The notes under the pieces were generated by a model. That model was not told where the DNA came from and made no database searches. It saw only the letters and a program-made list of their open reading frames with translations. DNA of 52,713 nt from an uncultured Actinomycetota bacterium (GTDB lineage Bacteria > Actinomycetota > Humimicrobiia > Humimicrobiales > Humimicrobiaceae): contig CAYGYY010000002.1 in the NCBI GenBank assembly GCA_964354265.1, positions 1 through 52,713 on the forward strand, given 5' to 3'. The position numbers and the translations under genes were made by a program. Of this stretch, positions 3,629 to 44,909 are shown piece after piece. Position 1 is the first letter of the stretch. Each line of letters opens with the position of its first letter.

Positions 3629-3630
3629 TA

Positions 3631-16798: not shown

Positions 16799-17826
16799 AA
16801 AAAGAAATCTATATTAGGGACTTAAAAGATGGAGCCAGCATAGAATCTTTATTTATTGTAACAAAGATAATAAAAAGGGTGAAAAAATCCCAGCGCATCG
16901 AAATTCCTGATGAAGAATATTGCCAGGTCAGGCTCCAGGATAGCAGCGGAGTCATTGATGGCATTATCTGGCCGGAAGCTTTAAAGAAGTCCCCGGATTT
17001 CAATGAAGAAGACTATGTTGAAGTTAAAGCTGCAGTTTCCCAGTTTAAAGGCTCGCCCCAGCTTGTTATTAATTCACTCAGGATCGTTCCTAAAAGCGGG
17101 ATAGATCCTTCCTGTTTTGTAAGGTCCATTACAGAAGAAAGCAGGAATAAAATGGTTCTTGAAATCAAGGAAATGATCACTGGCATAAAAAATCCGGATT
17201 TAAAAAAACTTCTTTACTCTTTTTTTGATGACATAGAGATTTCGGAGATTTTTAATATGTCTGCTGCAGCAGTCAGGTATCACCATGCTTATTCAGGGGG
17301 GTTGCTTGAACATTCACTTGCTGTTGCAAAAAATTGCGATCTTATATCCCAAAATTATCCTGAGCTGAATCGTGACCTTATGGTTGCTGGGGCACTTTTG
17401 CATGATATCGGTAAAATCGAGGAATATAAGACAGGCATTATTATAAAGATAACTGATGAAGGCGGCCTGATAGGACATATTGCAATTGGTTATGGCATGG
17501 TGCTTGAGAAAATCAAGGAACTCCCTGGATTTGATAAAAACATTGCAAAAAATATCCTTCACATCATAATCAGCCATCATGGTTATAAAGAATTCGGTTC
17601 TCCAAGAGTCCCTGAGACCCCGGAAGCATTTGTCGTATATCATATGGACCATATGGATGCCGATATTTTTCATGAAAAATTCGAAGTAGCAGAGCAGGAT
17701 ACAGCGTCAACTGAAAATGGTTTAAGCGATAATGATATTTCGCCAGGGCATATATACAGGAAAAGAAAAAATCCTGACTACAGGCAGGCACAGAATCCAA
17801 ATCAGCAGAAACTTTCAGGATTTTAA
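16795..17826 (+). CDS. OB-fold plus HD-domain 3'-5' exoribonuclease, YhaM-like
   Basis: It has an N-terminal OB fold (CQVRLQDSSGVIDGIIW) and an HD domain (HHAYSGGLLEHSL, LLHDIGK, ISHHG). Its start overlaps the surE stop (ATGA). Confidence 0.8.
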   Translation: MKKEIYIRDLKDGASIESLFIVTKIIKRVKKSQRIEIPDEEYCQVRLQDSSGVIDGIIWPEALKKSPDFNEEDYVEVKAAVSQFKGSPQLVINSLRIVPKSGIDPSCFVRSITEESRNKMVLEIKEMITGIKNPDLKKLLYSFFDDIEISEIFNMSAAAVRYHHAYSGGLLEHSLAVAKNCDLISQNYPELNRDLMVAGALLHDIGKIEEYKTGIIIKITDEGGLIGHIAIGYGMVLEKIKELPGFDKNIAKNILHIIISHHGYKEFGSPRVPETPEAFVVYHMDHMDADIFHEKFEVAEQDTASTENGLSDNDISPGHIYRKRKNPDYRQAQNPNQQKLSGF

Positions 17827-19278
17827 AGACTTCAAAATACTTATGGCCTTTCCGCATATCCTGTTTATTGCATCGGGCGCAGTAGATATTTCAGGAGCAT
17901 AGCTTGAGTCCATCATATATACCTGGTCTATGGTAAATTCCCCCGCCAGCGCTGCTGCAAATACATCAATTCTTTTACTTACGCAATCTTTACCGGACAT
18001 TTGCGCTCCAAGGAGCCTTCTTGTGCTTTTATCGATTATCAGGGTAATGAGGATATTTGATGCGCCAGGCAGCGCTTTTATATGTGACGGATACGTATCA
18101 GTGATTTTCATTGCATCGAACTTGTATTCAAGGGCCCTGGAAAAACTAATGCCGGTTCTTGCAAGTTCTGTGCCGAATATCCTGTCAGTCTTAGTGTCTG
18201 CAGAACCTGTAAAAACATCATGACCTCCTGCCGCATTGGCTCCGGCAACCCTGCCCGATTTTATTGCATTATTTGCAGTGGGGATATATTCATAAGATCC
18301 GGTTATAATATTTTTGACAAGACAGCAATCGCCAGCTGCATAAATATTAGTATGTGAAGTCTGCTGCATGCCGGATACTTTGATTGCATTTTTCTGTCCC
18401 ATATCTATCTGGCCACCGCTTATAAAGCTGGTATTTGCGGTAACGCCTGCTGATATTATAACCAGGTCCGCATCTATTTCTTTTTTTATATTTTGCATAT
18501 CATAACCGGTAACAGCAGAGACTGAGTATGCAAGACCTGTCGAAGTACTTATATTTAAAGCTACTGCCCTGGAATCCGGGATTATTTTCAAGCTTGAAGT
18601 TACCAAATTACCAGGGTATGCCAATATTCCGGAAGAATCCTGGCTATCTGATAAAAACGCAGTGACTTCATCTTCATAATCACTGAGTATCCTGTGCGAA
18701 GACTCAATTATAGAAACCTTTATGCCAAGCTTTATTAAAGACTCAGCTAAAAGTAAACCGGTGGAGCCTCCCCCAATGACACAGGCACATGATGGATTTT
18801 TTTCATCAATATATTTTTTTAGTCTTAATGCGTCACTTATATCCCTGAAATAAAATACATTACCGGCATTTACTCCCGGTATATCTATTAATGCCGGCTT
18901 TGCGCCACTGCAAATTATAAGCCTGTCATATTCAAAGATTTTACTGGATTCATTGCCAGGACTATCAGCATTTCCCGGGACCCAGGCAGTTATTTCTTTT
19001 CTAAAAGGATTCAGAGAAACAACCCTGTGACCGGTAAGTATTTTTATTTTTCTTTTTTCTTCAAAAAAAGAAGGCGGATATGTAAAAATGCTTGTGATAT
19101 CTTTTATAATGCCTGAAATATAATATGGTAATCCGCATGCGCCATAAGAAATATAGCTCCCGCTTTCAAGCACAGTTATATCAATATCAGGATTTTCTCT
19201 TCTTGCCTGGCTTGCAGCTGCAAGCCCTGCAGCATTTCCACCTATAACAAAAATGTTTTTATAAAGATCTGTAAGCAT
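17815..19278 (-). CDS. FAD-dependent pyridine nucleotide-disulfide oxidoreductase, CoA-disulfide reductase/NADH oxidase family
   Basis: VIGGNAAGLAAAS, single redox Cys context SYGACGLPYYISG, second dinucleotide fold VIGGGSTGLLLAE, and IYAAGDC. Confidence 0.85.
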   Translation of the reverse strand: MLTDLYKNIFVIGGNAAGLAAASQARRENPDIDITVLESGSYISYGACGLPYYISGIIKDITSIFTYPPSFFEEKRKIKILTGHRVVSLNPFRKEITAWVPGNADSPGNESSKIFEYDRLIICSGAKPALIDIPGVNAGNVFYFRDISDALRLKKYIDEKNPSCACVIGGGSTGLLLAESLIKLGIKVSIIESSHRILSDYEDEVTAFLSDSQDSSGILAYPGNLVTSSLKIIPDSRAVALNISTSTGLAYSVSAVTGYDMQNIKKEIDADLVIISAGVTANTSFISGGQIDMGQKNAIKVSGMQQTSHTNIYAAGDCCLVKNIITGSYEYIPTANNAIKSGRVAGANAAGGHDVFTGSADTKTDRIFGTELARTGISFSRALEYKFDAMKITDTYPSHIKALPGASNILITLIIDKSTRRLLGAQMSGKDCVSKRIDVFAAALAGEFTIDQVYMMDSSYAPEISTAPDAINRICGKAISILKSLKS

Positions 19279-31212: not shown

Positions 31213-31469
31213 AATGCTTTCCAGCCAGATGAATATTTTATGTGCTGATTTGATTCCTGGAATATTATTTTTCTGCAATCCTATCTATAAAAGCTATTAA
31301 AAAATATAGAATAACTATAACCACGCACGGATTTTAATCTTTTTTCTAAATTTTTTCCTTTTTTACTAAAGTTTGGATTATAAACATTCGATATAATATG
31401 TATATTTGTATTAATATAAGTTTATATTTATAAATTATTATATATATCTAAATTTTTTTTATAAAAATA

Positions 31470-31498
31470 TTGACAAATTAATAAATATTAGTAATAAT
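31470..31498 (+). promoter_or_regulatory. Candidate sigma-70 promoter of the tad operon (TTGACA-16/17-TAATAAT)
   Basis: It lies in the 370-nt very AT-rich spacer upstream of the HTH gene. An 11-nt direct repeat AATAAATATTA (31480 and 31502) overlaps and follows it. Confidence 0.3.
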
Positions 31499-31582
31499 AC
31501 AAATAAATATTAAAGTATATATATAAATCTATATATTTAACAAAAGAAGTCTTAATGTTTTATTTTTTAAATATCTTAAAAT

Positions 31583-31807
31583 ATGAATCCGGAGAACCAA
31601 ATGGACAATTTTTACAAAGTGAGTGAAGTTGCAAAAATTTTTAAAGTCAAGCCGATAACTATAAGGAAATGGTGCCAGTCCGGAAATATAAGCGCAAAGA
31701 AGTTTGGAAAAAGTTGGTATATTTTTAAAGACGATCTTTCAGAAATGATAAATTCATCCAAAAAAAGCAGCAGGGAAGGAAGTCTTTTAAAAGAAGAGTA
31801 TATGTGA
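31583..31807 (+). CDS. Excisionase/MerR-type helix-turn-helix DNA-binding protein
   Basis: YKVSEVAKIFKVKPITIRKWCQSGNISAKKFGKSWYIFKDDL matches the HTH_17/excisionase pattern. It ends 12 nt before the flp start. Confidence 0.8.
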   Translation: MNPENQMDNFYKVSEVAKIFKVKPITIRKWCQSGNISAKKFGKSWYIFKDDLSEMINSSKKSSREGSLLKEEYM

Positions 31808-31819
31808 GGAGGTGACAGA

Positions 31820-32011
31820 ATGAAGAAATTCTTGAGCAAGGTGGTATTTTATCTTACCCAGAAAGAAAGAGGCGCAACAGCAGTAGAGTACGCATTAATT
31901 GTGGCACTGGTCGCGCTCGCAATAGTAGTAGGGGTAACAGCACTTGGCGGAGGATTGAATACAGCATTCACAAATATTGCAGCTCAGGTATCTGGAGCTT
32001 TTGGTGGCTAG
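31820..32011 (+). CDS. flp: Flp family type IVb prepilin
   Basis: 63 aa with a GGAGG SD. The Flp motif ERG|ATAVEYALIVALVALAIVV predicts cleavage after G18, giving a 45-aa mature pilin. Confidence 0.9.
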   Translation: MKKFLSKVVFYLTQKERGATAVEYALIVALVALAIVVGVTALGGGLNTAFTNIAAQVSGAFGG

Positions 32012-32028
32012 TATGCTAATAGATCCTA

Positions 32029-32115
32029 TGCACGGGATTAGATAGCGATATCTGGTGATACTTTGACAGTGTCACCAGATATCATGTACTAATAAAAAAA
32101 ATATAGATCCGTGCA
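32029..32115 (+). other. Nested RNA stem-loop in the flp-tadE spacer
   Basis: The inner hairpin at 32047-32083 has a 15-bp stem (GATATCTGGTGATAC/GTGTCACCAGATATC, one G-U pair) and a 7-nt loop. The outer stem pairs TGCACGG(G)AT at 32029-32038 with ATCCGTGCA at 32107-32115. No T-run follows directly. Confidence 0.5.
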
Positions 32116-32172
32116 AAAAACCATTATTTTTGTAGAAAAATTCTCTTAAAAATATTTAATTTAAAATTTAAA

Positions 32173-32643
32173 ATGAAGATTTTATTTAACTTACATTCTT
32201 CGAAACAAAATTCAACAAGCAAACCATACAGTAATCCAGGCAGGCTTTTTAAAAGGCCTTTACTCGGGCAACAGTTTTCAATTCAAAGACAGGGCGGCGC
32301 AGCAGCTGTTGAATTTGCTCTGGTCTTTCCTTTTCTGGTGATGGTACTGTTTGGAATTTTTCAATTCGGCATAGCATATAATAACTGGATAGCCTTAACA
32401 CATGCTGCACGTGAGGGAGCAAGGCTTGCTGCAGTCGGGGAATTTGAGGAACAAAGAGTACTGGATTCTGCTCCAAGCGTAAATATAACAAGCGTAAATG
32501 CAAGTGGTATTGGTGGAGATATCGGCGAACCCGTAACTGTCACAGTAAGAGGCGATGTGCTTGATATCCAGATTCCCTTTATTGGTCACTGGCCGGTACA
32601 ACTTGAGAGCACTGCAACAATGCGGCTGGAAACATCTGACTGA
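32173..32643 (+). CDS. tadE: TadE-like pseudopilin
   Basis: The TadE motif GGAAAVEFALVFPFLVMVLFGIFQFG is preceded by an unusually long leader of ~42 aa. There is no alternative in-frame start closer to the motif. Confidence 0.8.
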   Translation: MKILFNLHSSKQNSTSKPYSNPGRLFKRPLLGQQFSIQRQGGAAAVEFALVFPFLVMVLFGIFQFGIAYNNWIALTHAAREGARLAAVGEFEEQRVLDSAPSVNITSVNASGIGGDIGEPVTVTVRGDVLDIQIPFIGHWPVQLESTATMRLETSD

Positions 32644-32734
32644 TTATCGGGCCAGTTAATGATTTTTTCCGGCACTTCTATGCCCCAATATGCATACATG
32701 CCATATAGAATAAAAATAAGAAAATTTTCAGCAA

Positions 32735-33703
32735 ATGATTAAAAAGCTATTTAAAAGATTTTCTTCTCAAAACGGTCAGGCTGCTATCATTATCGGGTTG
32801 ATGATAGCAACACTTATAGGGGCCGTCACTTATGTAGTAGACGTAGGCTCCATTTACGAAGCCAGGCGGACATATCAGACGATTGCAGACTCTTCGGCTC
32901 TTTCAGGAATACAGGAACTCCCGGAAAATCCCTCAAGGGCAATACAATCCGCTATTGACTATGCAGCAATGCAAGGGGTTTCCTTAGATTCTTCAGACAT
33001 TACCATAAGCTCCACTTTTGTTGCAGATGACACCATCACTGTGACAGCATCAAATCCGCAAAAACAGCTGTTTTTTGGCTGGGTCTTCGGACGAAATGAC
33101 ACTCCGGTAGGGGCAGATGCAACTGCGATGGTGGGCATGCCTGCAGAGTTTCTGGGAGTGGTACCATGGGGGGTTCCTGAAGAGGAATGGACCCCTGGTG
33201 GTAATTACACATTAAAATGTGGTCCTCCTGGTCAAGGAGGTGGGGCGCAAACAGGAAATTTCCAGGCTCTTGCTATAGGGGGGACCGGTGCTAGCAATTA
33301 TGAAGAGAACTGTGCCACCGGTGCTGATATCCCTCTTCACATTGGAGATGTTGTAGATACTGAGCCCGGAAATATGAAAGGACCGACTATTGATGGGACC
33401 GAAACCAGAATTTATGACTATGAGGATTATAATTTCAATACTTTTGGAGAACTTACAGAATCAGTTGATGGCGGTTATGCTTTAAAGAGAAATGACAGCC
33501 AGTTTGTAATTTGCCCTATAATACCTGAACTACCAGCAGGAAGAGATGAAGTAGAGCTTATTAAATTTGTACCGTTCATAATCACTCAAATCACAGGTTC
33601 GGAAGTTATCGGCACATTCCTTAATAAAGCTATTATCAAGTACGATGGAGAAATGGTGGGCATCGATGATTCAGGCATCAGGGTCATCAGGTTGATACAT
33701 TAG
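32735..33703 (+). CDS. tadG: TadG-like (Tad_N) pilus assembly protein, no vWA domain
   Basis: The N-terminus NGQAAIIIGLMIATLIGAVTYVVDVGSIYEARR...ADSSALSG is typical of the TadG N-terminal domain. The C-terminal part carries GNFQALAIGGTGASNYE and TEPGNMKGPT. Confidence 0.75.
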   Translation: MIKKLFKRFSSQNGQAAIIIGLMIATLIGAVTYVVDVGSIYEARRTYQTIADSSALSGIQELPENPSRAIQSAIDYAAMQGVSLDSSDITISSTFVADDTITVTASNPQKQLFFGWVFGRNDTPVGADATAMVGMPAEFLGVVPWGVPEEEWTPGGNYTLKCGPPGQGGGAQTGNFQALAIGGTGASNYEENCATGADIPLHIGDVVDTEPGNMKGPTIDGTETRIYDYEDYNFNTFGELTESVDGGYALKRNDSQFVICPIIPELPAGRDEVELIKFVPFIITQITGSEVIGTFLNKAIIKYDGEMVGIDDSGIRVIRLIH

Positions 33704-33987
33704 TAAATCGAAGAGTTTTTATTTGATTATATAAGCTGATCATGAAATGGACAAATATGTTCAAAAATCTGCTAATAAAAATCTGGCTGCTACTGAATTT
33801 ATATAACATACAGATTAAAAATACGGATGAAGTTCAAAAAACCCCAAATTAAGTACAAAAAAACTCTAAAATTATAAAAAATATTCTAAACAATTTTAGA
33901 AACTTACCGATATATATTAATAGAATAATTTAAATAATAAATTATAAATTATTTTATTTAGAAAATTGTTTTTAAAGGCGGTATTTT

Positions 33988-34926
33988 ATGAAGATAAGAA
34001 TAGTATTACTGCTTCTGGCAATTATTTTCGGGGTTGCAGCAGTTTTTGGAGTGATGATATATCTAAATAACGTCAGGTCTTCAGTTGAAAAAGAGGGAGA
34101 GCTTGTAAGTGTGCTTGTTGCAGCAGAAATAATTCCCAAAGAGATATCTGTTGAGGATATGATTGAAAGAGAACTGGTGAAAGTCAGCCAGCTTCCAAAA
34201 AAGTATATTGTCGAAGGCGTGATTAACTCTTTTGATGAATATAAGGGTTATGTTGCTTTTACTCAGATAAATAAGGGAGAACAAATTACACCTTCAAAGC
34301 TAATAAAGCTTGAAGATATTAAAATGTCTTTTACTGTACCGGAGGGGATGATGGCAGTTTCAGTGCCATATGATGAAATAAGGGGGGTAGCTGTTTCGAT
34401 AAAACCGGGAGACAAGGTCAATATTATCGCGACTTTTGAGCCAAAAACAGAAGATGTAATTATTCTTACCAAGGAAATGATAATGGCGATGCTTGTCGAA
34501 GGTGGCCCTGAGCAGCAAACCGGGCAGGTCGATGAAATGGGGCAGGTAACACAGGGTTTCAGTTTTGTCCCTCTTGGTGAGACATCTGCCAAAGTTGATA
34601 AGATCCTTGATGGAAAGGAATATATAGTTTATCCCCAGACAAAAATCCTGTTATGGAACATAGAAGTATTAAGTGTCAGGTCCCAGGTGGAAGCTGCTGT
34701 AGCAAAAAAGGAGCCAGAGGATGGTACATTAAATTCAAATAAAGATAAGGCTGAGGAAATCGATAAAAATACAGTAGTTCTTGCAGTCACACCTGAACAG
34801 GCTGAAAAGCTGGTATTTGCAGAGGAACTTGGAAAAGCATGGTTTGCGCTTGTTCCTGCAAGCGGCATGAAAGAAGAAGATACGCCTGGAAGGACTTACT
34901 TGAATATAATCGACGAGGAGAAATAA
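33988..34926 (+). CDS. cpaB: Flp pilus assembly protein CpaB/RcpC
   Basis: It has an N-terminal TM, a SAF-like segment (GEQITPSKL) and MMAVSVPYDEIRGVAVSIKPGDKVNII. The C-terminus carries VVLAVTPEQAEKLVFAEELG. Confidence 0.85.
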   Translation: MKIRIVLLLLAIIFGVAAVFGVMIYLNNVRSSVEKEGELVSVLVAAEIIPKEISVEDMIERELVKVSQLPKKYIVEGVINSFDEYKGYVAFTQINKGEQITPSKLIKLEDIKMSFTVPEGMMAVSVPYDEIRGVAVSIKPGDKVNIIATFEPKTEDVIILTKEMIMAMLVEGGPEQQTGQVDEMGQVTQGFSFVPLGETSAKVDKILDGKEYIVYPQTKILLWNIEVLSVRSQVEAAVAKKEPEDGTLNSNKDKAEEIDKNTVVLAVTPEQAEKLVFAEELGKAWFALVPASGMKEEDTPGRTYLNIIDEEK

Positions 34927-35029
34927 TTGGACAGGAATTGCACTTTTAAGTGCCGGTAATTAAATGACATGCAAAGATTTTTATTAACAATTTTAATCAT
35001 TTTTAAGCTGTAAAATTATAGAGGTTTTA

Positions 35030-36178
35030 ATGAAAAAAATACCCGTTGTAATAATTGATAAAGATGAGAAGAATATCGAAAAGACTCTTGCCCTTCTTGA
35101 AATATTTCCGGATATTGGCGCAACAAAATTCAGTAATGATATTTATGACCTTGAAATGGTCCTGGTGAAAAAGATCCCCACTGTTGTAATAATAGGTCCC
35201 AATTATGTCCTGAGTGACCTGCAGGAATTACTGGTCCATTACAGCAATTCTTTAAATGCTATCAAGATAATCCTGCTGTCTAAAAGCATTTCTGCTGAAC
35301 TTTTAAAATCGGCCCTTAAACTTAATATCCATGATTTAATAGAATACCCGTTCCAGGAAAAAGATCTCCGGGATTCATTTAAGAGGGCTGAATATATTTT
35401 TACAGACAATGCCGGGCAGGAATCAAAAGAAATATCTGAGTGCGAACGAATAATGTTTTTCAGCACAAAAGGCGGAGCAGGCAATACTTTCCTTGCAATA
35501 AATTTTGCAATAGCGCTTAAAGCTAAAACAAATAAAGAAGTGGTTTTATATGACATGAACTTCCAGTTTGGAGATGTTGCGCTGATGCTGAACATATATC
35601 CAAAAAATACTATTTTTGACCTGGTGGCAATAAACAAATATGATCCGGAAAACTTGAGTATTTTACTGACACAGCATAGCTCGGGTATAAAAATCCTGCC
35701 CTCCCCGATAGACCCCTCTCAGGGTGAATCTATAAGCATTGATTCTTCATTGAAGATTTTTGATAGCCTGACCTGCGTTTGTGATTATGTTGTAATAGAT
35801 GCGCCCTTCGGGTTCAAAGATAATGTCTTATCCGTAATGGATAAGATAGATTATATGTTCCTGGTTGCTACAAAAGATGTGCCCAGTATTAAAAACCTGA
35901 AGATCTGCCTGCAGCTGCTGGAAAGGCTTTCATATCCGAAGGAAAGAACATATGTAATTTTGAACCGCGCAGACAGCAGGGTGGATTTTGAAGTTGATGA
36001 GATAGAAAAGACAATACAGCGAAAAATCGATATACATATCCCCGGAGACAAACTTATTCCTATAAGTATAAATAAGGGTGTTCCGATAATCACCAGCTCA
36101 CCAAAGTCTCCAGTTGGGACTAGTATTTCTAAGATGTTGGATGTGGTCATTCCTAAGAAGGAAAAAGTAAAGATTTGA
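35030..36178 (+). CDS. tadZ: TadZ/CpaE: atypical receiver domain fused to ParA/MinD-like ATPase
   Basis: The receiver-like N-terminus lacks the phospho-acceptor Asp (VVIIGPNY) and the conserved Lys (IEYPF). The ParA-like half has the deviant P-loop KGGAGNT (aa 147-153). Confidence 0.85.
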   Translation: MKKIPVVIIDKDEKNIEKTLALLEIFPDIGATKFSNDIYDLEMVLVKKIPTVVIIGPNYVLSDLQELLVHYSNSLNAIKIILLSKSISAELLKSALKLNIHDLIEYPFQEKDLRDSFKRAEYIFTDNAGQESKEISECERIMFFSTKGGAGNTFLAINFAIALKAKTNKEVVLYDMNFQFGDVALMLNIYPKNTIFDLVAINKYDPENLSILLTQHSSGIKILPSPIDPSQGESISIDSSLKIFDSLTCVCDYVVIDAPFGFKDNVLSVMDKIDYMFLVATKDVPSIKNLKICLQLLERLSYPKERTYVILNRADSRVDFEVDEIEKTIQRKIDIHIPGDKLIPISINKGVPIITSSPKSPVGTSISKMLDVVIPKKEKVKI

Positions 36179-36206
36179 TAAATACTTAATAATAAAGGAT
36201 GAGATT

Positions 36207-37562
36207 ATGGGACTTCAGGAAAAGATACGGAACCTGCAGGAGATTGAAAATAAATTATCGCCTACCAGCGGGGAAACCCTTTCTCTTCGCGCAAAACGGA
36301 TAGAGGATATAAAAAGAGACGTACACCACAGGCTGGTTGAAGAGCTTTCAGACGTGATTTTCAGGAAAAATATCAGTGATTCCGAATTGAAATCCAAGGT
36401 ATCTGCCAGTACGCAGAAAATGGTGTTCGAAACTGATTTTCCACTTACTCATGAAGAAAGAAACAAAATAATAACAGAAATAATCGATAACATCGTAGGT
36501 TATGGACCTATAGAGGAATTCTTAAGGGATAAAGAAGTTACAGAAATAATGGTTAATAATCCCTCTACGATATTTGTTGAAAAATTCGGCAAGATCCATA
36601 TGACTTCCAAGTCTTTCATAGATGAAAACCATCTAATGAGGATAATAGATAAAATAGTCTCAAAGATAGGTCGAAGGGTCGATGAGGCATCGCCTTATGT
36701 AGACGCAAGGTTGCCGGATGGTTCAAGAGTAAATATAATCATAGGACCTCTGGCACTGAATGGACCGGTAATGACTATAAGGAAATTTTCTGCCGAACCT
36801 TTCACAACAGAGGATCTTATCCAGATGGGGACATTTTCAAGAAAACTTTCAGATTTTATTAAGGCTTGTGTCAAAGGAAGGGTAAATATACTTATTTCAG
36901 GAGGTACAGGAACTGGTAAAACGACCTTATTAAATGTAGTTTCCTCCTTTCTCCCGGACGATGAGAGAATAATAACTATTGAAGATGCCGCTGAACTCCA
37001 GCTCGATCAGTCCCATGTCATAAGGCTTGAATCAAGGCCTCCAAACATAGAAGGTAAAGGGGCTGTAATAATTCGGGACCTTGTCAGGAATGCCCTGAGG
37101 ATGAGACCCGACAGAATAGTGGTCGGTGAAGTAAGGGGTGGAGAGGCGCTTGACATGCTCCAGGCAATGAATACCGGTCATGACGGAAGCTTAAGTACGG
37201 TGCACGCTAACTCACCCAGGGATGTTCTATCCAGGCTTGAAACAATGGTTTTAATGGCAGGAGTAGACCTTCCGGTAAGGGCAATAAGGGAACAGATTTC
37301 TTCAGCAATAAACCTTATTGTTCACATGAGCAGGCTAAAAGACGGTACCAGGAAGATTATTAAAGTCACTGAAGTTCAGGGAATGGAAGGCGAAATAATA
37401 ACCCTGCAGGATATCTTTGTATTCGATTATTCAGCAGGTATGGACGATAAGGGAAATTATATAGGAACGATAAAATCTACGGGACTGAGGCCAAAATTTC
37501 TGGCAAGGCTGCATGATTACGGTGTTGAAGTGCCAAACACTATTTTTATGGAAGAAACATAA
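36207..37562 (+). CDS. tadA: CpaF/TadA secretion ATPase
   Basis: Walker [10 protein letters not shown], Asp box [10 protein letters not shown], Walker [13 protein letters not shown] and His box [13 protein letters not shown]. Confidence 0.95.
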
Positions 37563-37586
37563 AATTTTATGGAAAAAAACTAAAAT

Positions 37587-39644
37587 ATGAAGAACAATAT
37601 AAATAAAGACAGCTTAAAAAACAATATAAATACCCTGGCAATTTTGTTGCTTATTTGCATCACAGTTCCTTTTCTTGCTTTTTTATCACCTGGCACTATT
37701 TGGGCAGAACCTGAAGAATCCCAGACCCAGGTGCAGGATTTCGAAGAAGGGCCAATAGTATCAGAATCTGGAGAAACAATAATAAAAGAGGTAGATGCAG
37801 CAGGTTTTCCGAATATAAGTATGTATATAAGTTTCAGTGAAGATTCAGAGATAGGGGTCCAGGAACTTGGAAGAGAAAACTTCATTATTACTGAAAACGG
37901 AAAAAATATTGAGAATTTTGAAATAAAGAAAATAGGAGAAATAAGTGAACCCATGGGGATAGCCCTGGCTGTGGATGCAAGCGGGAGCATGCAGGGCAAT
38001 CCGATAGAAGATGCAAAAAGCGCATCGAGAGTATTTATTGATGCAATGAGGGATATAGACAAGATAACAGTTGTCGGCTTTTCCGATACTGCAACGCTAT
38101 ACTCGAGTTTTACATCTGATAAGCAAAGACTGGAAAATGCTGTAGCTGGCATAGTTGCCAATGGTGAAACCGCATTATTCGACGGCATAATAAAAGGTAT
38201 TGAACAGTTTAATAATTTTAAAGACCTGAAACATAAATATCTGGTAGTGCTTTCAGATGGTGCGGATACTGTGAGCACTAAAACCGCAGTAGACTGTATC
38301 AACAAAGCCAGTTCTGCTGGAATAACAGTATATTCAATAGCTCTTTTATCAAACGAATTTAATCCACGGGACCTGGAGCATATCGCTTTAAGTACAAATG
38401 GGGAGCTTTTAAAAACTGCTGATTCAAATGAACTGATAGGCCTATATTCAAGTATTTCCGAAAAAATAAGAAACCAGTATAAAATAACCTACAGGAGCAG
38501 TGCTGCGACTGTTGAAAAAATCTCATCCTTAATATCTATAAGCGCAGGTGGATATAATGATTCGATAGAGATAAGTTATGAAAATCCTTTTGTAACCCTC
38601 TCCGGCAACGGTGTCATATCAAAATCCCAGTCTTCTCTTTCCATGACAAAAATCTCAATTTTGAATCTATGGTGGATGAGGCTTCTGATATATATACTGA
38701 TTTTTGCCAGCGTCACTCTTTTTATTTATATAATCTCTACGGTAATGATACCGGGTAAACCAAGTTTAAAAGGCAGGATGGATTACTATCTTTATAATGC
38801 ATCCGATATTACAGCAGAAAGTGAAACTGGAGAAAAAAAGAAAACAGGGTTCTTCTCAAGGTTTTCAAAAGCAACAAATAAAGCATCAGGAAATGCAAGA
38901 TACGGGGAGCTTTTTGACCTTAAGCTTAGAAGAGCAGGAATGAATATTTCCGGGACCAAATTTGTTACCATGCATATGGTTGCTGTGGTTGTCGTTACAG
39001 CAGCAGTGTTTATTTTGACTAAGAATTTTTTAGTGACACTGGCAGTCGTTGTTTTTATAATCTTTATACCGTTCTTACTTATAAACTTTAAAACCAACCA
39101 AAGGATAAAAAAATTCAATGAGCAGCTCCCTGATACTCTGCAGCTTGTAGAAGGAGCGCTAAAAGCAGGATACAGCCTCAACCAGTCCCTGGTAATGGTG
39201 ATAAATGAAACAAAACCCCCGATTTCTGAAGAATTCAGGATAACCTTGAATGAGATAAGAATGGGCATTTCAGAAAAAGCGGCACTTGAAAATATGGCTA
39301 AGAGAATAAACAGTGAATTATTTGACTGGGTCATTCTTGCAGTCAATATCCAGCGGGAAGTTGGAGGCAATCTTGCTGAGATTATGGATATTATTGCCAA
39401 TACAATAAGGGAGAAAGAAAGAGTATTAAGGCAGATAAAGGCACTTACAGCCGAAGGAAAACTTTCAGCATATGTTTTGATAGGTCTGCCCATTATCCTG
39501 GGAATCGCGCTATCGATTCTTAACAAGGCATACATCAGCGTCTTGTTTTCGACAAAAATAGGTTTTATGATGCTCGCTCTTGCTGCAATCCTGATGATTA
39601 TAGGAATAGTCTGGATTTTAAGGATAGTAAAAATTGACTATTAA
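37587..39644 (+). CDS. tadB: vWA-domain / TadB (T2SS-F platform) fusion protein
   Basis: 685 aa. It has a signal/anchor ending TIWA|EPEE and a vWA domain with MIDAS residues (DASGS, GETALFDG, LSDGAD). A TM spans aa ~357-387. The TadB-like T2SSF domain carries LPDTLQLVEGALKAGYSL and three further TMs. Confidence 0.85.
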   Translation: MKNNINKDSLKNNINTLAILLLICITVPFLAFLSPGTIWAEPEESQTQVQDFEEGPIVSESGETIIKEVDAAGFPNISMYISFSEDSEIGVQELGRENFIITENGKNIENFEIKKIGEISEPMGIALAVDASGSMQGNPIEDAKSASRVFIDAMRDIDKITVVGFSDTATLYSSFTSDKQRLENAVAGIVANGETALFDGIIKGIEQFNNFKDLKHKYLVVLSDGADTVSTKTAVDCINKASSAGITVYSIALLSNEFNPRDLEHIALSTNGELLKTADSNELIGLYSSISEKIRNQYKITYRSSAATVEKISSLISISAGGYNDSIEISYENPFVTLSGNGVISKSQSSLSMTKISILNLWWMRLLIYILIFASVTLFIYIISTVMIPGKPSLKGRMDYYLYNASDITAESETGEKKKTGFFSRFSKATNKASGNARYGELFDLKLRRAGMNISGTKFVTMHMVAVVVVTAAVFILTKNFLVTLAVVVFIIFIPFLLINFKTNQRIKKFNEQLPDTLQLVEGALKAGYSLNQSLVMVINETKPPISEEFRITLNEIRMGISEKAALENMAKRINSELFDWVILAVNIQREVGGNLAEIMDIIANTIREKERVLRQIKALTAEGKLSAYVLIGLPIILGIALSILNKAYISVLFSTKIGFMMLALAAILMIIGIVWILRIVKIDY

Positions 39645-39668
39645 TTATTTAGAAAGGATCATGGCGAT

Positions 39669-40598
39669 ATGAATATATATATTATCATGGCAATAGTCTT
39701 TATAGCTGTTGTGAGCCTTACAATGTTCTTTTGCCTGCCGGCTATAATCAGGAGCCTTCCAAAAAAATCGCTCGTAAAGCTGAAATATTATGATAATGCT
39801 TCAAAACTTTCTGAGCAGAAAGCTACTATACTTGAAAAATCACTAAACCCGGTCTTCAGGAAAGTAATATCCCAGGCAAGAAAGATACTGCCAAAAAATC
39901 TTGTTGAATCTGTAAAAAGCAGGCTGGAGCTTGCCGGTATACAGGATGTGGTAAGGATTGATATTTTTCTGGCAATTAAATTTTTCCTGCCATTCATATT
40001 TCTTTTTGCTTTGATTTTCATGATGCTGTTTTTCGATGTGCCGGGAACTGTAAGGCTCGCAATAGTGATTCTTGTTCCTTTTACTTACATTCTTCCCGAC
40101 TACTATCTTAAAAGCAAGACTGCAAAAAGACAGGATGAAATAAGGAGGAGCCTTCCAAATGCACTTGACCTTCTCACCATAAGTGTTGAAGCAGGTCTTG
40201 GGTTTGACCAGGCATTGTACAAAGTTGCAGTTAATACAAAAGGCACGCTAGGTGATGAATTCAAGAGGACATTGAAAGAAATGGAAATCGGAGTATCAAG
40301 AAAAGATGCCTTGAAGAATTTAAGCAAGAGGACAGATATATCAGAATTGAACACTTTTATTTTTTCAATCATCCAGGCTGAAATATTCGGCATATCTATT
40401 GGCAAGGTCCTGAGGATCCAGGCAGGAGAAATGCGTATAAAAAGAAGACAAATAGCGGAAGAAAAGGGTATAAAAGCGCCTGTCAAACTGGTATTTCCAA
40501 CTATCCTTTTTTTGTTTCCTGCCCTGATGGTTATCATATTAGGGCCTGCCGGTATAAGGATAATAGATACATTCAAAGTAATAATGGGTGGGAATTAA
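39669..40598 (+). CDS. tadC: TadC (T2SS-F platform protein)
   Basis: 309 aa. It has an N-terminal TM, LPNALDLLTISVEAGLGFDQAL and KAPVKLVFPTILFLFPALMVIILGP. Confidence 0.88.
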   Translation: MNIYIIMAIVFIAVVSLTMFFCLPAIIRSLPKKSLVKLKYYDNASKLSEQKATILEKSLNPVFRKVISQARKILPKNLVESVKSRLELAGIQDVVRIDIFLAIKFFLPFIFLFALIFMMLFFDVPGTVRLAIVILVPFTYILPDYYLKSKTAKRQDEIRRSLPNALDLLTISVEAGLGFDQALYKVAVNTKGTLGDEFKRTLKEMEIGVSRKDALKNLSKRTDISELNTFIFSIIQAEIFGISIGKVLRIQAGEMRIKRRQIAEEKGIKAPVKLVFPTILFLFPALMVIILGPAGIRIIDTFKVIMGGN

Positions 40599-40674
40599 CA
40601 GGCAGGTGGTTTTTGAAGGTATACATTAAAAGTAAATGTATGATTACTATCATTAAAAATAAGCAGGAAATTAT

Positions 40675-41550
40675 ATGGAACAAAAAGAAATAATAGAAAC
40701 TGCAGGAGACGCAGGCATTAGGCAAACGAAGGAAAAGAATGAATTTGAGGATATATTCAGGGAGATGCTTAGCATTGAGGATACCAAGAATCTTAGCAGC
40801 AAAGTTAAATACTGCCTGATAAAAATATCAATAGATAATTTTAATGAAATTTCATCGTTAATGAAGGCTGAAGAAAAAAATTCACTGATATACAAGTTCT
40901 CAAATTTTTTATTCAAAAATCTCAGAAAGAAAGATATATACCTCATGTCTGAGCCAGGGAAGTTCCTGGTGATTTTTCCGGATATAAGCGTGGATGCTGC
41001 AGATACAGTAATGAAAAGAATAATAGTCTCTGCAGAAAAAGAATTCAGTCAGAACTTAAAGGTGAGTTGGGATGTCCTGGTAGGTACAAACAAGGAAGAA
41101 GAAATCAAACCATTTATCAGGAAATCAGATCTTATTTCAAATTTAAATAAAAATCCTACAACGGGTAGAGTCGTTGAAAAGGTGATTTTAAAAAAACAGG
41201 CGTCAAGTCTGATTTTCAGGAATTTTCTTATTTCATTTATATTATTTGCTTTAATTCTTATTGCTGGCATTACTCTTATATTTTATGGGACAAGCAGATT
41301 TTATTATTTCCCTGGATATGAAGCGTTTGAGAATTTCCTGCAAAATATGATGCCTGGCGCAATAAGATATTTCAGCAGTATAAACATTAAAGCTACCCCA
41401 TTTCTATTCTTTATAGTTTTGATTCTTTCACTTAGCCTGACTTTTGGTCTGGGGATGTTCACAGGTTTTATAATTAACTTGAAGATGAAAAACTCAGGAA
41501 CGCTCAGGATCAAAATAGCAGCTCTGCAAAGCAAGAATAATGCGGCTTAA
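40675..41550 (+). CDS. Membrane-anchored degenerate GGDEF-like domain protein (A-site EPGKF, I-site RKKD retained)
   Basis: aa 46-120 align without gaps to the remembered PleD GGDEF core. IDIDFF corresponds to ISIDNF, RAID-x5-GGEEF to RKKD-x5-EPGKF, and VVIMPD to LVIFPD. Two or three C-terminal TM segments follow. Confidence 0.65.
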   Translation: MEQKEIIETAGDAGIRQTKEKNEFEDIFREMLSIEDTKNLSSKVKYCLIKISIDNFNEISSLMKAEEKNSLIYKFSNFLFKNLRKKDIYLMSEPGKFLVIFPDISVDAADTVMKRIIVSAEKEFSQNLKVSWDVLVGTNKEEEIKPFIRKSDLISNLNKNPTTGRVVEKVILKKQASSLIFRNFLISFILFALILIAGITLIFYGTSRFYYFPGYEAFENFLQNMMPGAIRYFSSINIKATPFLFFIVLILSLSLTFGLGMFTGFIINLKMKNSGTLRIKIAALQSKNNAA

Positions 41551-41554
41551 AACT

Positions 41555-41580
41555 AAAACCAGCACCCGCTCTCTGGTTTT
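41555..41580 (+). terminator. Candidate intrinsic terminator at the end of the tad operon
   Basis: An 8-bp stem AAAACCAG/CTGGTTTT with a 10-nt loop. The stem is A/U-rich and merges into a short T-run, so the call is weak. Confidence 0.35.
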
Positions 41581-41751
41581 AAACCAGGATATCTGGCCTT
41601 AAAACTATACATTTTTTTATAGGATTTCACTTCCTGATTATTAAAGATTTAATCTTGAATACATGTTGAAAAAAGTAGTATCATTTATCTGGATGCCTTT
41701 AGAAGGTTATCCTGAGATGATTTGGCAGAAATATTTTTCCGGAGAGGATAT

Positions 41752-42741
41752 ATGTATACTGGCGCTGATTTCCTTATAGATAAAGATATGAACATTTATC
41801 TGAGCGAGGTCAATACCGGACTACCCGGAGGTGCACAGGAATATGATCTTATACATCGGTTGTTGTTTAATAGAGCTTCTGGTGTTTTTTTAAAGATTGA
41901 AAAAATTTGCAGAGAGCAATACAAAAAACCCTTTAAAAAATATATCAGGGAACTGTCGTTTTTTAAGGATTTGAAGACACTAAAGATATGGATGGATGAA
42001 CAGGGGCCCCCTCCTGTAAATCCGGATAATTATTTAAGGCTGGAAGACAAATGGGTGCAGTATTTAGTCCTTTCCGGGAATTATCCTGTAATTCCAACAG
42101 TTTTATTTAATAAGGAAAATCTTGGATACTTTAAAGAGGCACTGTTGCAGGATCAGTGTTTCATATTAAAAAGACGGTTTGGCAGGGGCGGCAGGGGCTT
42201 CAGGAAGATATTGGATTTAAGTGGTCTTGATAACTTGATAGAATCAGAAATTACCAGCAATTTTTATATACAGCAGCCCTACCTAAACAGTACTGTAAAG
42301 TGCGGCAAAGACATGTTTAGATTATCTTTGAGGGCGCTATCTTTTGCAGGGAAATTCATATGTATGTATGCCAACATTTCAAAAAAGGTCACTTCCAATC
42401 ACGGGTTTCTCTTTTATGTGAATCCGGATAAACACTTAGGTATAAAGGGCTGCAGTTTTAATATAACGCTGGTAACTAAAAGAGCATGGGAAGCGCATAT
42501 TTTTTTTGGAAAAGATATGCCAGATTATCTATACCACAATCTTAATGAAGAACGGGTTTCGGATTCAGTGTTAAACATTCCGCAGGATATATATGAAAAA
42601 ATAATAAAAATATCTACTTCTATAAGCCGATTTTATATGGAGCTGGATGCTTCAGAATTGCCCAAATGCTATCTTGAGGAAGAGGGTTTTAATGATTTTC
42701 CAGATGGCCAGAAAATAACAGAAGAGATGAAAGGAGAGTAA
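41752..42741 (+). CDS. ATP-grasp-like protein with apparently permuted motif order
   Basis: ATG 41752 follows GGAGAGG; the ORF-track TTG is at 41722. The N-terminus GADFLIDKDMNIYLSEVNTGLPGG resembles the C-terminal Mg/ATP motif of ATP-grasp enzymes. In the middle, DKW..YLVL...YPVIPT, FILKRRFGRGGRGF, FYIQQPYL and TSNHG resemble the N-terminal and central motifs. Confidence 0.5.
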   Translation: MYTGADFLIDKDMNIYLSEVNTGLPGGAQEYDLIHRLLFNRASGVFLKIEKICREQYKKPFKKYIRELSFFKDLKTLKIWMDEQGPPPVNPDNYLRLEDKWVQYLVLSGNYPVIPTVLFNKENLGYFKEALLQDQCFILKRRFGRGGRGFRKILDLSGLDNLIESEITSNFYIQQPYLNSTVKCGKDMFRLSLRALSFAGKFICMYANISKKVTSNHGFLFYVNPDKHLGIKGCSFNITLVTKRAWEAHIFFGKDMPDYLYHNLNEERVSDSVLNIPQDIYEKIIKISTSISRFYMELDASELPKCYLEEEGFNDFPDGQKITEEMKGE

Positions 42742-42742
42742 G

Positions 42743-43483
42743 ATGAAAGGTAAAATGAAAATTAAAGTATTGATGCTTGCAATAGCGGCCTTTGTAAGCC
42801 TGGTTTCTTTAACTTCTGTTTCATGCATAAGACTGGCAGGATTGCAGGGCTCAGGCAATGTAGTAAGCGAGGAAAGAAGCGTATCAGGATTTAATGCTGT
42901 TGCTGTCAGTTCAGGGATGAATCTGTACCTTAGGCAGGGTGATACTGAGTACTGCAAGCTGGAAACCGATGATAATATTATTTCCCAGATAGTTACTGAA
43001 GTAAAAAATGAAAAACTGGTTATAGAGTATAAGAATTTTCTTGGAGGGATAAGCACACGAAAGCCTGTAAATGTTTATGTTACAGTAAAAAATTTAAATG
43101 AGGTTTCAGCTTCCAGTGGTTCAAGGGTAGAAAGTGAGCTTATTAATTCAAATTCACTTGAAATAAACATGGGCAGCGGTTCAAATGGTGAATTCATTGT
43201 CAGCACCAGGAGTCTTGATGTCGGTCTTTCAAGCGGCTCACAGTTGGAAGTATCAGGAGAGACACAGAGCCAGAACGTAGACCTTTCAAGCGGGGTGACC
43301 TACAATGCTGAAGACCTTACAAGCATGAATGCAGAGTTAGATGTTTCAAGCGGTGCACAAGCTAAAATTATGGTAAGCGATAGCCTTGATGTAGATATCT
43401 CAAGCGGAGGCAGTGTAGAATATTCCGGCTCACCGCAGGTAACGTCAAACATATCGTCAGGAGGTAGCCTAAAAAATAATTAG
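42743..43483 (+). CDS. DUF2807 / head GIN-domain lipoprotein
   Basis: It has a signal peptide with Cys (SVSCIRL), GSGNVVSEERSVSGFNAVAVSSGMNLYL, repeated beta-helix-like SSGS motifs and a C-terminal YSGSPQV...SSGGSL. Confidence 0.8.
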   Translation: MKGKMKIKVLMLAIAAFVSLVSLTSVSCIRLAGLQGSGNVVSEERSVSGFNAVAVSSGMNLYLRQGDTEYCKLETDDNIISQIVTEVKNEKLVIEYKNFLGGISTRKPVNVYVTVKNLNEVSASSGSRVESELINSNSLEINMGSGSNGEFIVSTRSLDVGLSSGSQLEVSGETQSQNVDLSSGVTYNAEDLTSMNAELDVSSGAQAKIMVSDSLDVDISSGGSVEYSGSPQVTSNISSGGSLKNN

Positions 43484-43569: not shown

Positions 43570-44331
43570 ATGAAAACAAAGAGAAAAAATAATTTTGCAA
43601 AGCCGATCTTTATTACAGCTGCAATTGTAGTGGTTATTATTCTTACATTTTCACTTAGCTCATGCATTACAATAAGAGTAAATGATATAAAAGGCTCAGG
43701 GCAAATCGAGACTAAAGAATTCGAAGTCTCGGATTTTAATACCCTGGAGTTTTCAGGAATAGGAAACATCTATATAACCCAGGGAGATACAGAATCATTA
43801 AAAGTGGAAGCAGAAAACAATGTCATTGATAATCTTAAGGTTTCCACACAGGGTAATACATTATCAATAGGTTTTAAGGATAGGTTAGTCAATGTGATAC
43901 CAACAAAATCGATTAATTATTACCTGACGGTTAAAGACCTTAGAGAACTCAAAATATCAGGAGCCGGAAATGTAAAATGTGAACAATTAATAACCCAGGA
44001 CTTGACGATACTATCAAGCGGGCTCGGAAACATGGAAATGCAACTTGCTGCTGAAGAGTTACGGGTAGATATCTCAGGTGCAGGTAAGATTGTAATGTCG
44101 GGTGAGGTACAGACCCAGGACATAACAATATCAGGTGCTGGTTCTTATGGAGCTTTCAATCTGGAAAGCAGCGATTGCAGGATAAATATAACCGGTTTAG
44201 GCAAAGCAGAATTAAACGCATCTGATACGCTTGATATAAGGATGAGCGGCATTGGAAGCATTGAATATAAAGGTAATCCGGAGGTGGCCCAGAATATTTC
44301 AGGAGGCGGGAAAATAAAGAGTGTTGATTGA
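43570..44331 (+). CDS. DUF2807 / head GIN-domain lipoprotein (paralog)
   Basis: Lipobox LSSCIT, GSGQIETKEFEVSDFNTLEFSGIGNIYI, and a C-terminal YKGNPEV...SGGGKI. The architecture matches the preceding gene. Confidence 0.8.
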   Translation: MKTKRKNNFAKPIFITAAIVVVIILTFSLSSCITIRVNDIKGSGQIETKEFEVSDFNTLEFSGIGNIYITQGDTESLKVEAENNVIDNLKVSTQGNTLSIGFKDRLVNVIPTKSINYYLTVKDLRELKISGAGNVKCEQLITQDLTILSSGLGNMEMQLAAEELRVDISGAGKIVMSGEVQTQDITISGAGSYGAFNLESSDCRINITGLGKAELNASDTLDIRMSGIGSIEYKGNPEVAQNISGGGKIKSVD

Positions 44332-44375: not shown

Positions 44376-44909
44376 ATGGCAGAACTTACAAAGGAACAAT
44401 TGGAAGAAGGCAAGAAAGTTTTAGGCGGTGTAAATATTTTCTTCTGGGTAGTGGGCGGCATTATTGCAGTAGGATTACTTTCATTTATAAGCTTTGGTGG
44501 CTGGGCCAAAGACTTAACATTGGGCCCGATTGCAATAGGACTTCCATCACCTGACGTAACATGGATGTTCCTGGCATTATATGTTGTTGCACTTGTTGGA
44601 TTGTATATAAGGAAAGGATGGGCTGTTCCGGTAGGCAGGGCAGGACTGGTAGTAGCAATGGTGATACTTTTCCCGGTTGGAACGATTTTTGGTGCCATAC
44701 TCTGGAAAAGGATAAATGATCCCATTGCAAAAAGGTATCTCAATTATGGAGAAGCCCATGAAGAAGAGGAAGAAGCAAAAGAAGAGCCAAAACCTGAAGA
44801 GAGCGTAGGGAGTAAGCTTGAAGCAGCAGAGAAAAAACTGAAAGAAGTGGAGCAAAAGCTTGAAGCAGCAGAGAAAAAACTGGAAGAAACAGAGCAAAAA
44901 CTTGAATAA
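44376..44909 (+). CDS. Hypothetical membrane protein with C-terminal coiled-coil repeats
   Basis: It has an AAGGAGG SD, about 4 TM segments, and an acidic tail with repeated KLEAAEKKL(K/E)E(V/T)EQ units. Confidence 0.6.
   Translation: MAELTKEQLEEGKKVLGGVNIFFWVVGGIIAVGLLSFISFGGWAKDLTLGPIAIGLPSPDVTWMFLALYVVALVGLYIRKGWAVPVGRAGLVVAMVILFPVGTIFGAILWKRINDPIAKRYLNYGEAHEEEEEAKEEPKPEESVGSKLEAAEKKLKEVEQKLEAAEKKLEETEQKLE
44814..44906 (+). repeat. 42-bp in-frame tandem repeat, 2.2 copies
   Basis: Units at 44814-44855 and 44856-44897 differ at about 4 positions. A partial third copy lies at 44898-44906. Confidence 0.85.

Follow-up and report, generated by a model that had tools for sequence, protein, structure and literature searches.

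Does the tight adherence (Tad) pilus possess a receptor of its own for cyclic di-GMP (c-di-GMP), a second messenger? Tad pilus activity is controlled by c-di-GMP, for example in Caulobacter, and how this control is exerted "remains to be shown" (PMC6581867). The question is raised here by a gene at positions 40675..41550 (+ strand) of contig CAYGYY010000002.1, from an uncultured Actinomycetota bacterium, of which the first 52,713 nucleotides were analyzed (hereafter, the window). The open reading frame (ORF) and its translation give a protein of 291 amino acids that combines a degenerate GGDEF domain with a hairpin of two transmembrane (TM) helices, and the gene follows tadC at the end of a tad cluster. 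The original prediction regarded this protein as a membrane-tethered c-di-GMP receptor acting on pilus assembly or retraction; its ORF coordinates, its 76-nt gap to tadC and its motif positions were all correct. The family to which the gene belongs is a real, previously undescribed accessory Tad component, in which the residues of the allosteric inhibitory site (I-site) of GGDEF domains have been selectively conserved and the catalytic residues have been lost.

Fold, motifs and position of the protein

Single-sequence searches of Pfam and the Protein Data Bank (PDB) return GGDEF matches below threshold, and profiles and structure prediction were required to place the domain. Against PF00990 the protein scores 22.4 bits (E 1.2e-4, amino acids 28-147), just below the gathering score of 23.8, and four NCBIfam GGDEF-type models match it with E-values of 2e-6 to 1e-3, all far under their cut-offs. 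Weak matches to PF00990 (E<0.1) recur in 10 of 13 close homologues, and three family members, P0022, P0028 and P0030, lie above the Pfam gathering score (33, 26.1 and 47.8 bits, respectively). An exhaustive search of 1.84 billion representative proteins with a family profile of 13 homologues recovers 17 members at E<=1e-10, followed by approximately 125 proteins that match query positions ~30-160; those that were checked (a few) are true GGDEF proteins. Protein P0027 matches the family profile with an E-value of 5.9e-9 and PF00990 with an E-value of 7e-22. An alignment to PF00990 had been proposed as the means of confirming the register; the register and the match at the family level stood, while the single sequence remained under the gathering score.

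HMMER alignments to SiaD (7e6g, query 34-125) and DgcR (6zxm, query 52-126) contain no gaps and place the RKKD motif of the protein on RxxD and its EPGKF motif on GGEEF, which upholds the gapless GGDEF register. An extended profile (A3) detects 39 solved GGDEF structures at E<0.01 and aligns with PleD (2wb4), again without gaps (query 19-102 to residues 313-396; profile A3). This profile was built with two Pfam-positive intermediates and with I-site-intact sequences only, and it served to fix the register only; since its membership was chosen, neither the invariance of its Arg and Asp columns nor the very low E-values that it gives against the PDB count as independent evidence. The fold was also checked with AlphaFold2 (AF2), as had been suggested. 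The model of the domain alone (predicted local distance difference test, pLDDT, 75; predicted TM-score, pTM, 0.65; core pLDDT 84-91) has the order E25-34, H37-41, H46-63, E68-71, E77-85, H87-104 and E111-119 (E, strand; H, helix), and both the full-length and the domain-only models show the GGDEF order of strands and helices with a core pLDDT of 79-91. When the domain model is compared with the PDB by Foldseek, nearly all top matches are GGDEF structures (query-normalised TM-score 0.51-0.59, probability 1.00). Amino acids ~28-150 (40756..41124, +), which are predicted to be cytoplasmic, are thus a degenerate GGDEF fold in the register given above.

Within this fold, EPGKF (amino acids 93-97; 40951..40965, +) replaces the catalytic GG(D/E)EF, and the RxxD primary I-site motif reads RKKD (amino acids 84-87; 40924..40935, +), aligned to RKSD of DgcR. 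Exactly five residues, IYLMS, lie between the two, which is the canonical spacing. The columns in which a DgcR 'I-site mutant' (6zxb; RKSD to AKSA) differs from the c-di-GMP-bound wild type are those of R84 and D87. According to the gapless PleD offset, R84 corresponds to R359 and D87 to D362, and an additional arginine on the following helix, alpha3, R115 (41017..41019, +), corresponds to R390, the third residue of the primary I-site. K38 (40786..40788, +) is a conserved basic residue in helix alpha0, Lys or Arg in 19 of 22 short-form homologues (the longer paralogues are described below); by offset arithmetic we take it to occupy the position of PleD R313, in the secondary I-site.

The active site is altered throughout. 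In PleD, D327 binds the metal, and N335 and D344 bind guanine; the counterparts of these residues here are S52, S60 and N69. The substrate-binding Asn region is therefore changed, as predicted, with a serine at the N335 position that is variable in the family. The view that the protein is an unorthodox but active diguanylate cyclase, supplying c-di-GMP locally at the base of the pilus, would find its only argument in the GGDEF fold itself. With EPGKF in place of GG(D/E)EF, the metal-binding Asp and the guanine-binding Asn and Asp replaced, and the phosphate-binding C-terminal part missing, its probability is close to nil, and it was rejected because every catalytic position is both replaced and variable in the family.

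The same division between the two sites is seen in a conservation ranking of the 22 short-form homologues over 291 columns. D87 is kept in 20 of the 22 (rank 20), R84 in 18, with Lys in one more (rank 35), and R115 in 17, likewise with one Lys (rank 49), so that the I-site residues fall within the top 7-17% of columns. On the other hand, the catalytic-equivalent positions 96, 60 and 52 are variable and come near the bottom (ranks 190, 239 and 269), and positions 94-96 vary across the family. Clades A and B have an intact I-site, and RKKD and R115 are present in all additional metagenomic members. The basic residue at position 38 is lost solely in clade C (P0021, P0153 and P0154), together with R84 and R115, as would be expected if these residues belonged to a single site.

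The domain is preceded by a variable, disordered stretch (amino acids 1-22) and by helix alpha0 (amino acids 23-38), which carries a strongly conserved IF(K/R)EMLxxE motif. The GGDEF core (amino acids 44-150) leads through a basic linker (amino acids 151-173) into two hydrophobic helices, both helical in the AF2 model: TM helix 1 (amino acids 174-206; 41194..41292, +), with F184 and F191 invariant, and TM helix 2 (amino acids 241-273; 41395..41493, +), with an FGLGMFxGF motif of which F257 and G258 are invariant. A loop of ~35 amino acids with a conserved PG joins the helices, and the C-terminal tail is basic. Segments rich in Lys and Arg flank both ends of the hairpin on the side of the GGDEF domain, and these positive charges are the basis for predicting that the domain is cytoplasmic. 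The membrane anchoring that had been claimed is real and is provided by this C-terminal hairpin.

Homologues form ~25 clusters (24-100% identity) among 5.8 billion proteins; 13 came from a first search, ~17 representatives from the exhaustive search and only 3 more from a second, word-indexed search with a broader profile. All named sources are metagenome-assembled genomes of uncultured Actinomycetota, and an exact look-up did not find the window protein on record in public assemblies. A survey of co-occurrence with tad genes finds every short form with readable context, at more than 15 loci and from 24 to 100% identity, directly 3' of tadC and on the same strand (L001/L007, L002, L004, L005, L006, L008, L009, L010, L015, L017, L018-20, L022-27 and L032). 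P0015 lies on a 1 kb contig without context and is outside this count. The genes farther downstream differ by locus, being a convergent gene (L009, L010), a PadR-HAAS-DUF4097-DUF2807 cluster or an ATP-grasp-like ORF, which makes this family the last conserved tad gene; the statement that it ends the tad cluster holds in every short-form homologue whose context can be read.

In the window, tadC (39669..40598, +; T2SSF platform protein, PF00482, E 5e-15) is separated from the gene by a 76-nt spacer (40599..40674, +). The spacer carries an AGGA Shine-Dalgarno sequence (40665-40668) 6 nt ahead of the ATG; no terminator-like site was found in it, and its sole promoter-like match is weak (9/12) and not above chance. 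The lack of a terminator-like site, together with a 4-nt overlap between the two genes in L004, is consistent with putative membership of the gene in the tadC transcript. A membrane protein that merely happens to be encoded 3' of tadC, with no role in the pilus, is highly improbable. The gap of 76 nt here, that of 210 nt in L001 and the six related tad loci without the gene (see below) agree with such a neighbor; against it stand the invariable position of all readable short forms, immediately 3' of tadC and in its orientation, down to 24% identity, the overlap in L004 with most other gaps at ~15-65 nt, and the variability of the genes beyond.

Proposed c-di-GMP sensing and its alternatives

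The reading that we prefer, and to which we would give an even chance, is that the protein serves as an optional subunit of the Tad machine, located beside the TadB/TadC platform, with a dead GGDEF domain that would sense c-di-GMP at the I-site and modulate pilus assembly or retraction. Binding of c-di-GMP is inferred, as are the partner that the protein contacts and the direction in which it acts. The hairpin would fix the protein to the cytoplasmic membrane, with the TadB/TadC platform as its probable neighbor, and the host machine would be the monoderm (secretin-less) Tad pilus of Actinomycetota. The retained allosteric product pocket, made up of R84-x-x-D87, R115 and K38, would most likely accept an intercalated c-di-GMP dimer. 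Such binding would then alter how the domain associates with itself or how it touches the platform proteins or the CpaF ATPase, and in this way license or bias assembly of the pilus versus its retraction. PelD, PssE and YdaK, which license exopolysaccharide synthases, would offer a parallel.

A number of observations weigh against this reading. Five of the 22 short forms lack R84, D87 or R115 (clade C, P0015 and P0016); P0015 reads RKKL, and P0016 reads RKTR and has a glutamate at position 115. At least four of these five remain tad-linked, P0016 (L015 8799-9680) and P0021 (L017) among them with their genes immediately 3' of tadC, and with tad-linked members whose I-site is broken, the core role of the family cannot rest on the I-site everywhere. 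N55, K81 and K150 are polar residues whose conservation exceeds that of the I-site residues, and the block FLxKNLRKKDIYL is invariant in the close family, which exceeds what c-di-GMP binding needs and hints at a protein interface. The domain is also short (~125 amino acids), covering positions 15-143 of the 161 in the PF00990 profile, so that the last strands and the phosphate-binding end are missing. No GGDEF, EAL, HD-GYP or PilZ gene was found in a Pfam scan of essentially all ORFs of at least 100 amino acids in the 52.7 kb window, and the whole window gave zero matches to Rfam, hence no c-di-GMP riboswitch. Finally, the gene is dispensable in close relatives. A metagenome scan with the window TadC as query gave 12 informative loci (those with at least 1 kb downstream), and 6 of the 12, with TadC 67-74% identical, lack the gene in the 3 kb that follow. 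A six-frame hmmsearch for a pseudogene remnant in the 3 kb downstream of these six loci found nothing above noise. The gene is therefore an optional accessory and not a core component.

In P0016, the changes D87R and R115E look like a reciprocal charge swap. This suggests that D87 and R115 contact each other, possibly as a structural salt bridge, which likewise weighs against a ligand pocket.

Several of these points would be accounted for by a ligand-independent adaptor, in which the dead GGDEF domain is a protein-protein module, for instance one that docks CpaF or TadZ to TadB/TadC, and RKKD has a structural or interface role. We hold this to be rather unlikely, while regarding it as the most serious of the alternatives. 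The tad-linked members without an intact I-site (P0016, P0021), the charge swap in P0016, the invariance of FLxKNLRKKDIYL in the close family and the rank of N55 and K81 above R84 and R115 all point toward an adaptor, as does the fact that the residues invariant across all members are those of the hydrophobic core and the TM helices. An adaptor does not readily explain, however, why retention has fallen on precisely the three or four residues that make up the canonical primary and secondary I-site, with their canonical spacing, why the catalytic face has drifted freely, or why the I-site residues are lost jointly in clade C. The longer paralogues beside glycosyltransferase genes, which keep RxxD in a setting like that of known I-site receptors, also argue against it.

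A different ligand is improbable. At the remnant active site, the ligand might be GTP or ATP, as in GdpP-type degenerate GGDEF domains; at the I-site-like pocket, it might be (p)ppGpp or a cyclic dinucleotide other than c-di-GMP. A weak match to the GdpP-type GGDEF model PF24898 (E 0.0039), ppGpp- or pppGpp-bound PleD structures among the fold matches and a window without c-di-GMP enzymes are in keeping with this explanation. On the other hand, the columns equivalent to the active site are among the least conserved, which makes a ligand at the substrate site unlikely. In solved I-site complexes, c-di-GMP is contacted by the residues that are conserved here, and genes for HD-GYP and GGDEF proteins lie close to related loci.

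Further support for c-di-GMP sensing may come from paralogues outside tad loci. Three long forms of 611-639 amino acids (L011 2996-4915, L013 5315-7177 and L014 1930-3765) consist, in order, of an N-terminal region of ~130 residues without a Pfam match, a TackOD1 domain (PF18551), and the degenerate GGDEF domain, RxxD included, and two-TM hairpin known from the short forms. In 3/3 loci, they are encoded directly 3' of a processive GT2 glycosyltransferase, and the L013 gene also adjoins a PAS-GGDEF-HD-GYP gene. P0024 (486 amino acids) has its N-terminal parts and a degenerate GGDEF domain in common with the long forms and stops before the hairpin, and P0028 is a TackOD1-GGDEF protein without TM helices on a 1.7 kb contig that is uninformative on context. 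In thaumarchaea, loci for type IV pili have been noted to contain TackOD1 proteins (PMC5847659). By analogy, the genomic setting of the GT2-linked long forms resembles that of the I-site receptors PssE, YdaK and PelD. It is conceivable, though we lean slightly against it, that a dead GGDEF domain with a hairpin serves uncultured Actinomycetota as a portable c-di-GMP sensor, used alone for the Tad pilus and fused to TackOD1 for a GT2 exopolysaccharide synthase.

The tad cluster and its surroundings

The tad cluster of the window is complete apart from a secretin, and the remainder of it is encoded on the same strand (31583-41550). It begins with a small HTH_17/MerR-like regulator gene (31583..31807, +; PF12728, E 7.7e-12), which ends 12 nt 5' of flp and keeps this position in L004, L015 and L018; it is likely a dedicated regulator of the tad cluster. 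The ~370 nt of intergenic DNA ahead of it (31213-31582) are extremely AT-rich and contain the best sigma-70-like promoter match of the region, TTGACA-17-AATAAT (31470..31498, +; 11/12, a consensus match only). The flp pilin gene (31820..32011, +; PF04964, E 3.6e-16) is followed, just 3' of its stop codon, by a perfect 12-bp inverted repeat (32047-32083, +), GATATCTGGTGA ... TCACCAGATATC, which is extendable to ~15 pairs. The repeat may form a transcript-stabilizing or attenuating hairpin that sets the ratio of pilin to machinery.

Two genes for pseudopilins come next, one tadE-like (32173..32643, +; PF07811, E 1.2e-17) and one tadG-like (32735..33703, +; PF13400), followed by rcpC/cpaB (33988..34926, +; PF16976, E 1e-20), a tadZ/cpaE-like gene for a ParA/MinD ATPase (35030..36178, +; CbiA and ParA matches) and the cpaF/tadA ATPase gene (36207..37562, +; T2SSE, E 4.9e-68). 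In tadB (37587..39644, +), an N-terminal secreted VWA domain (E 2.9e-13) is fused to the T2SSF domain (E 9.6e-18). The fusion runs from a signal-peptide-like N-terminus through the VWA domain (amino acids ~125-283), a region of ~90 amino acids and a TM helix to T2SSF, and the annotations of the related loci L001, L004, L017 and L018 show VWA joined to T2SSF in the same way. This layout predicts that the VWA part is an extracytoplasmic module on the pilus platform. Neither the cluster nor the scanned window ORFs of at least 100 amino acids yielded a secretin (RcpA/CpaC) or a prepilin peptidase (Peptidase_A24); the former result fits a monoderm Tad system, and the latter implies that the peptidase must be encoded elsewhere.

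A weak hairpin followed by a run of seven T lies 3' of the GGDEF gene (41574..41620, +) and is a possible transcript end. RNA folding of 41540-41640 gives -18.4 kcal/mol, with a z-score of -1.5 that is not significant alone, and the hairpin is thus not decisive as a terminator. Beyond it, the window has a RimK/ATP-grasp-like ORF (41722-42741), and a like ORF is also present in L004 and L008. The PadR-HAAS-DUF4097-DUF2807(x2) cluster recurs 3' of the tad loci of relatives (L001, L004, L008, L018, L029 and L033); of this cluster, the window retains only two DUF2807 paralogues (42743-43483 and 43570-44331) and a conserved ORF of 177 amino acids (44376-44909). In L001, from the P0006 metagenome-assembled genome, a PAS and HD/HD_5 protein with HHE and GYP motifs is encoded ~7 kb 3' of the tad locus (17531-18994) and is a candidate HD-GYP c-di-GMP phosphodiesterase. 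Together with the PAS-GGDEF-HD-GYP gene in L013, it counts in favor of c-di-GMP sensing, as a gene for c-di-GMP turnover near a related locus. One of the tad loci that lack the GGDEF gene, L034, has an ORF of 419 amino acids on the opposite strand (3236-4495, -), ~0.9 kb 3' of tadC, which encodes a putative transposase.

Comparison with known systems

A tad-linked degenerate GGDEF protein, or a Tad-specific c-di-GMP receptor, was not found in the literature searched. If the portable-sensor reading is true, the protein would be the first subunit of a type IVc pilus dedicated to c-di-GMP reception. A membrane protein from a tad cluster that keeps only the c-di-GMP pocket of a GGDEF domain would be a testable candidate for direct second-messenger control of the type IVc machine. 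The impact of such a finding is limited by the family, which is tiny, confined to uncultured Actinomycetota and dispensable in close relatives.

Compared with the canonical, product-inhibited diguanylate cyclases PleD, WspR, DgcR and SiaD, the fold is shared and the I-site residues occupy identical positions, whereas the Tad protein lacks all catalytic and substrate residues as well as a sensory N-terminal domain and is not an enzyme. PelD of Pseudomonas aeruginosa, an inner-membrane protein, has a degenerate GGDEF domain that binds c-di-GMP at an RxxD I-site and at an arginine of a helix (R402). Its structure (4etz) is among the fold matches, with a query-normalised TM-score of 0.40 that is weaker than those of active cyclases. 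Unlike the Tad protein, PelD has four TM helices and a GAF domain ahead of its GGDEF domain and regulates a sugar polymer.

The likeness to PssE and YdaK extends further. PssE of Listeria monocytogenes, encoded by the last gene of pssA-E, binds c-di-GMP with a dissociation constant of 0.79 uM and at ~2 molecules per protein (PMC4125290). In YdaK of Bacillus subtilis, the motif reads SDERI, with RxxD five residues upstream, and either R202A or D205A abolishes exopolysaccharide production (PMC5422440). Like these two proteins, the Tad protein belongs to a Gram-positive-type envelope and has a dead GGDEF domain with RxxD five residues upstream and a membrane anchor. The gene likewise lies in the putative operon of an envelope machine that it would control, and the PssE gene, too, is the last of its operon (PMC4125290, PMC5422440). 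In contrast to PssE, YdaK and PelD, however, the anchor here is C-terminal and the GGDEF domain N-terminal, the TM helices of PssE and YdaK being N-terminal. The partner would be a Tad pilus and not a glycosyltransferase, the domain is shorter (~125 amino acids), and the likeness to PssE and YdaK is one at the level of the GGDEF superfamily only.

As for the known c-di-GMP effectors of type IV pili, MshEN (in the MshE/PilB ATPases), FimX (EAL), FimW and the PilZ adaptors share with the Tad protein the proposed outcome, direct action of c-di-GMP on a type IV filament machine (PMC6581867, PMC11656802). The claim that the Tad protein is distinct from these effectors is borne out, since they use the MshEN, EAL and PilZ folds. 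These receptors serve type IVa and MSHA systems via the ATPase, whereas here a GGDEF I-site would be carried by a separate subunit in the membrane that belongs to a type IVc (Tad) machine. If c-di-GMP is indeed sensed at this site, the principle known from PelD, PssE and YdaK, in which a dead cyclase licenses an envelope machine, would extend from polysaccharide synthases to pili.

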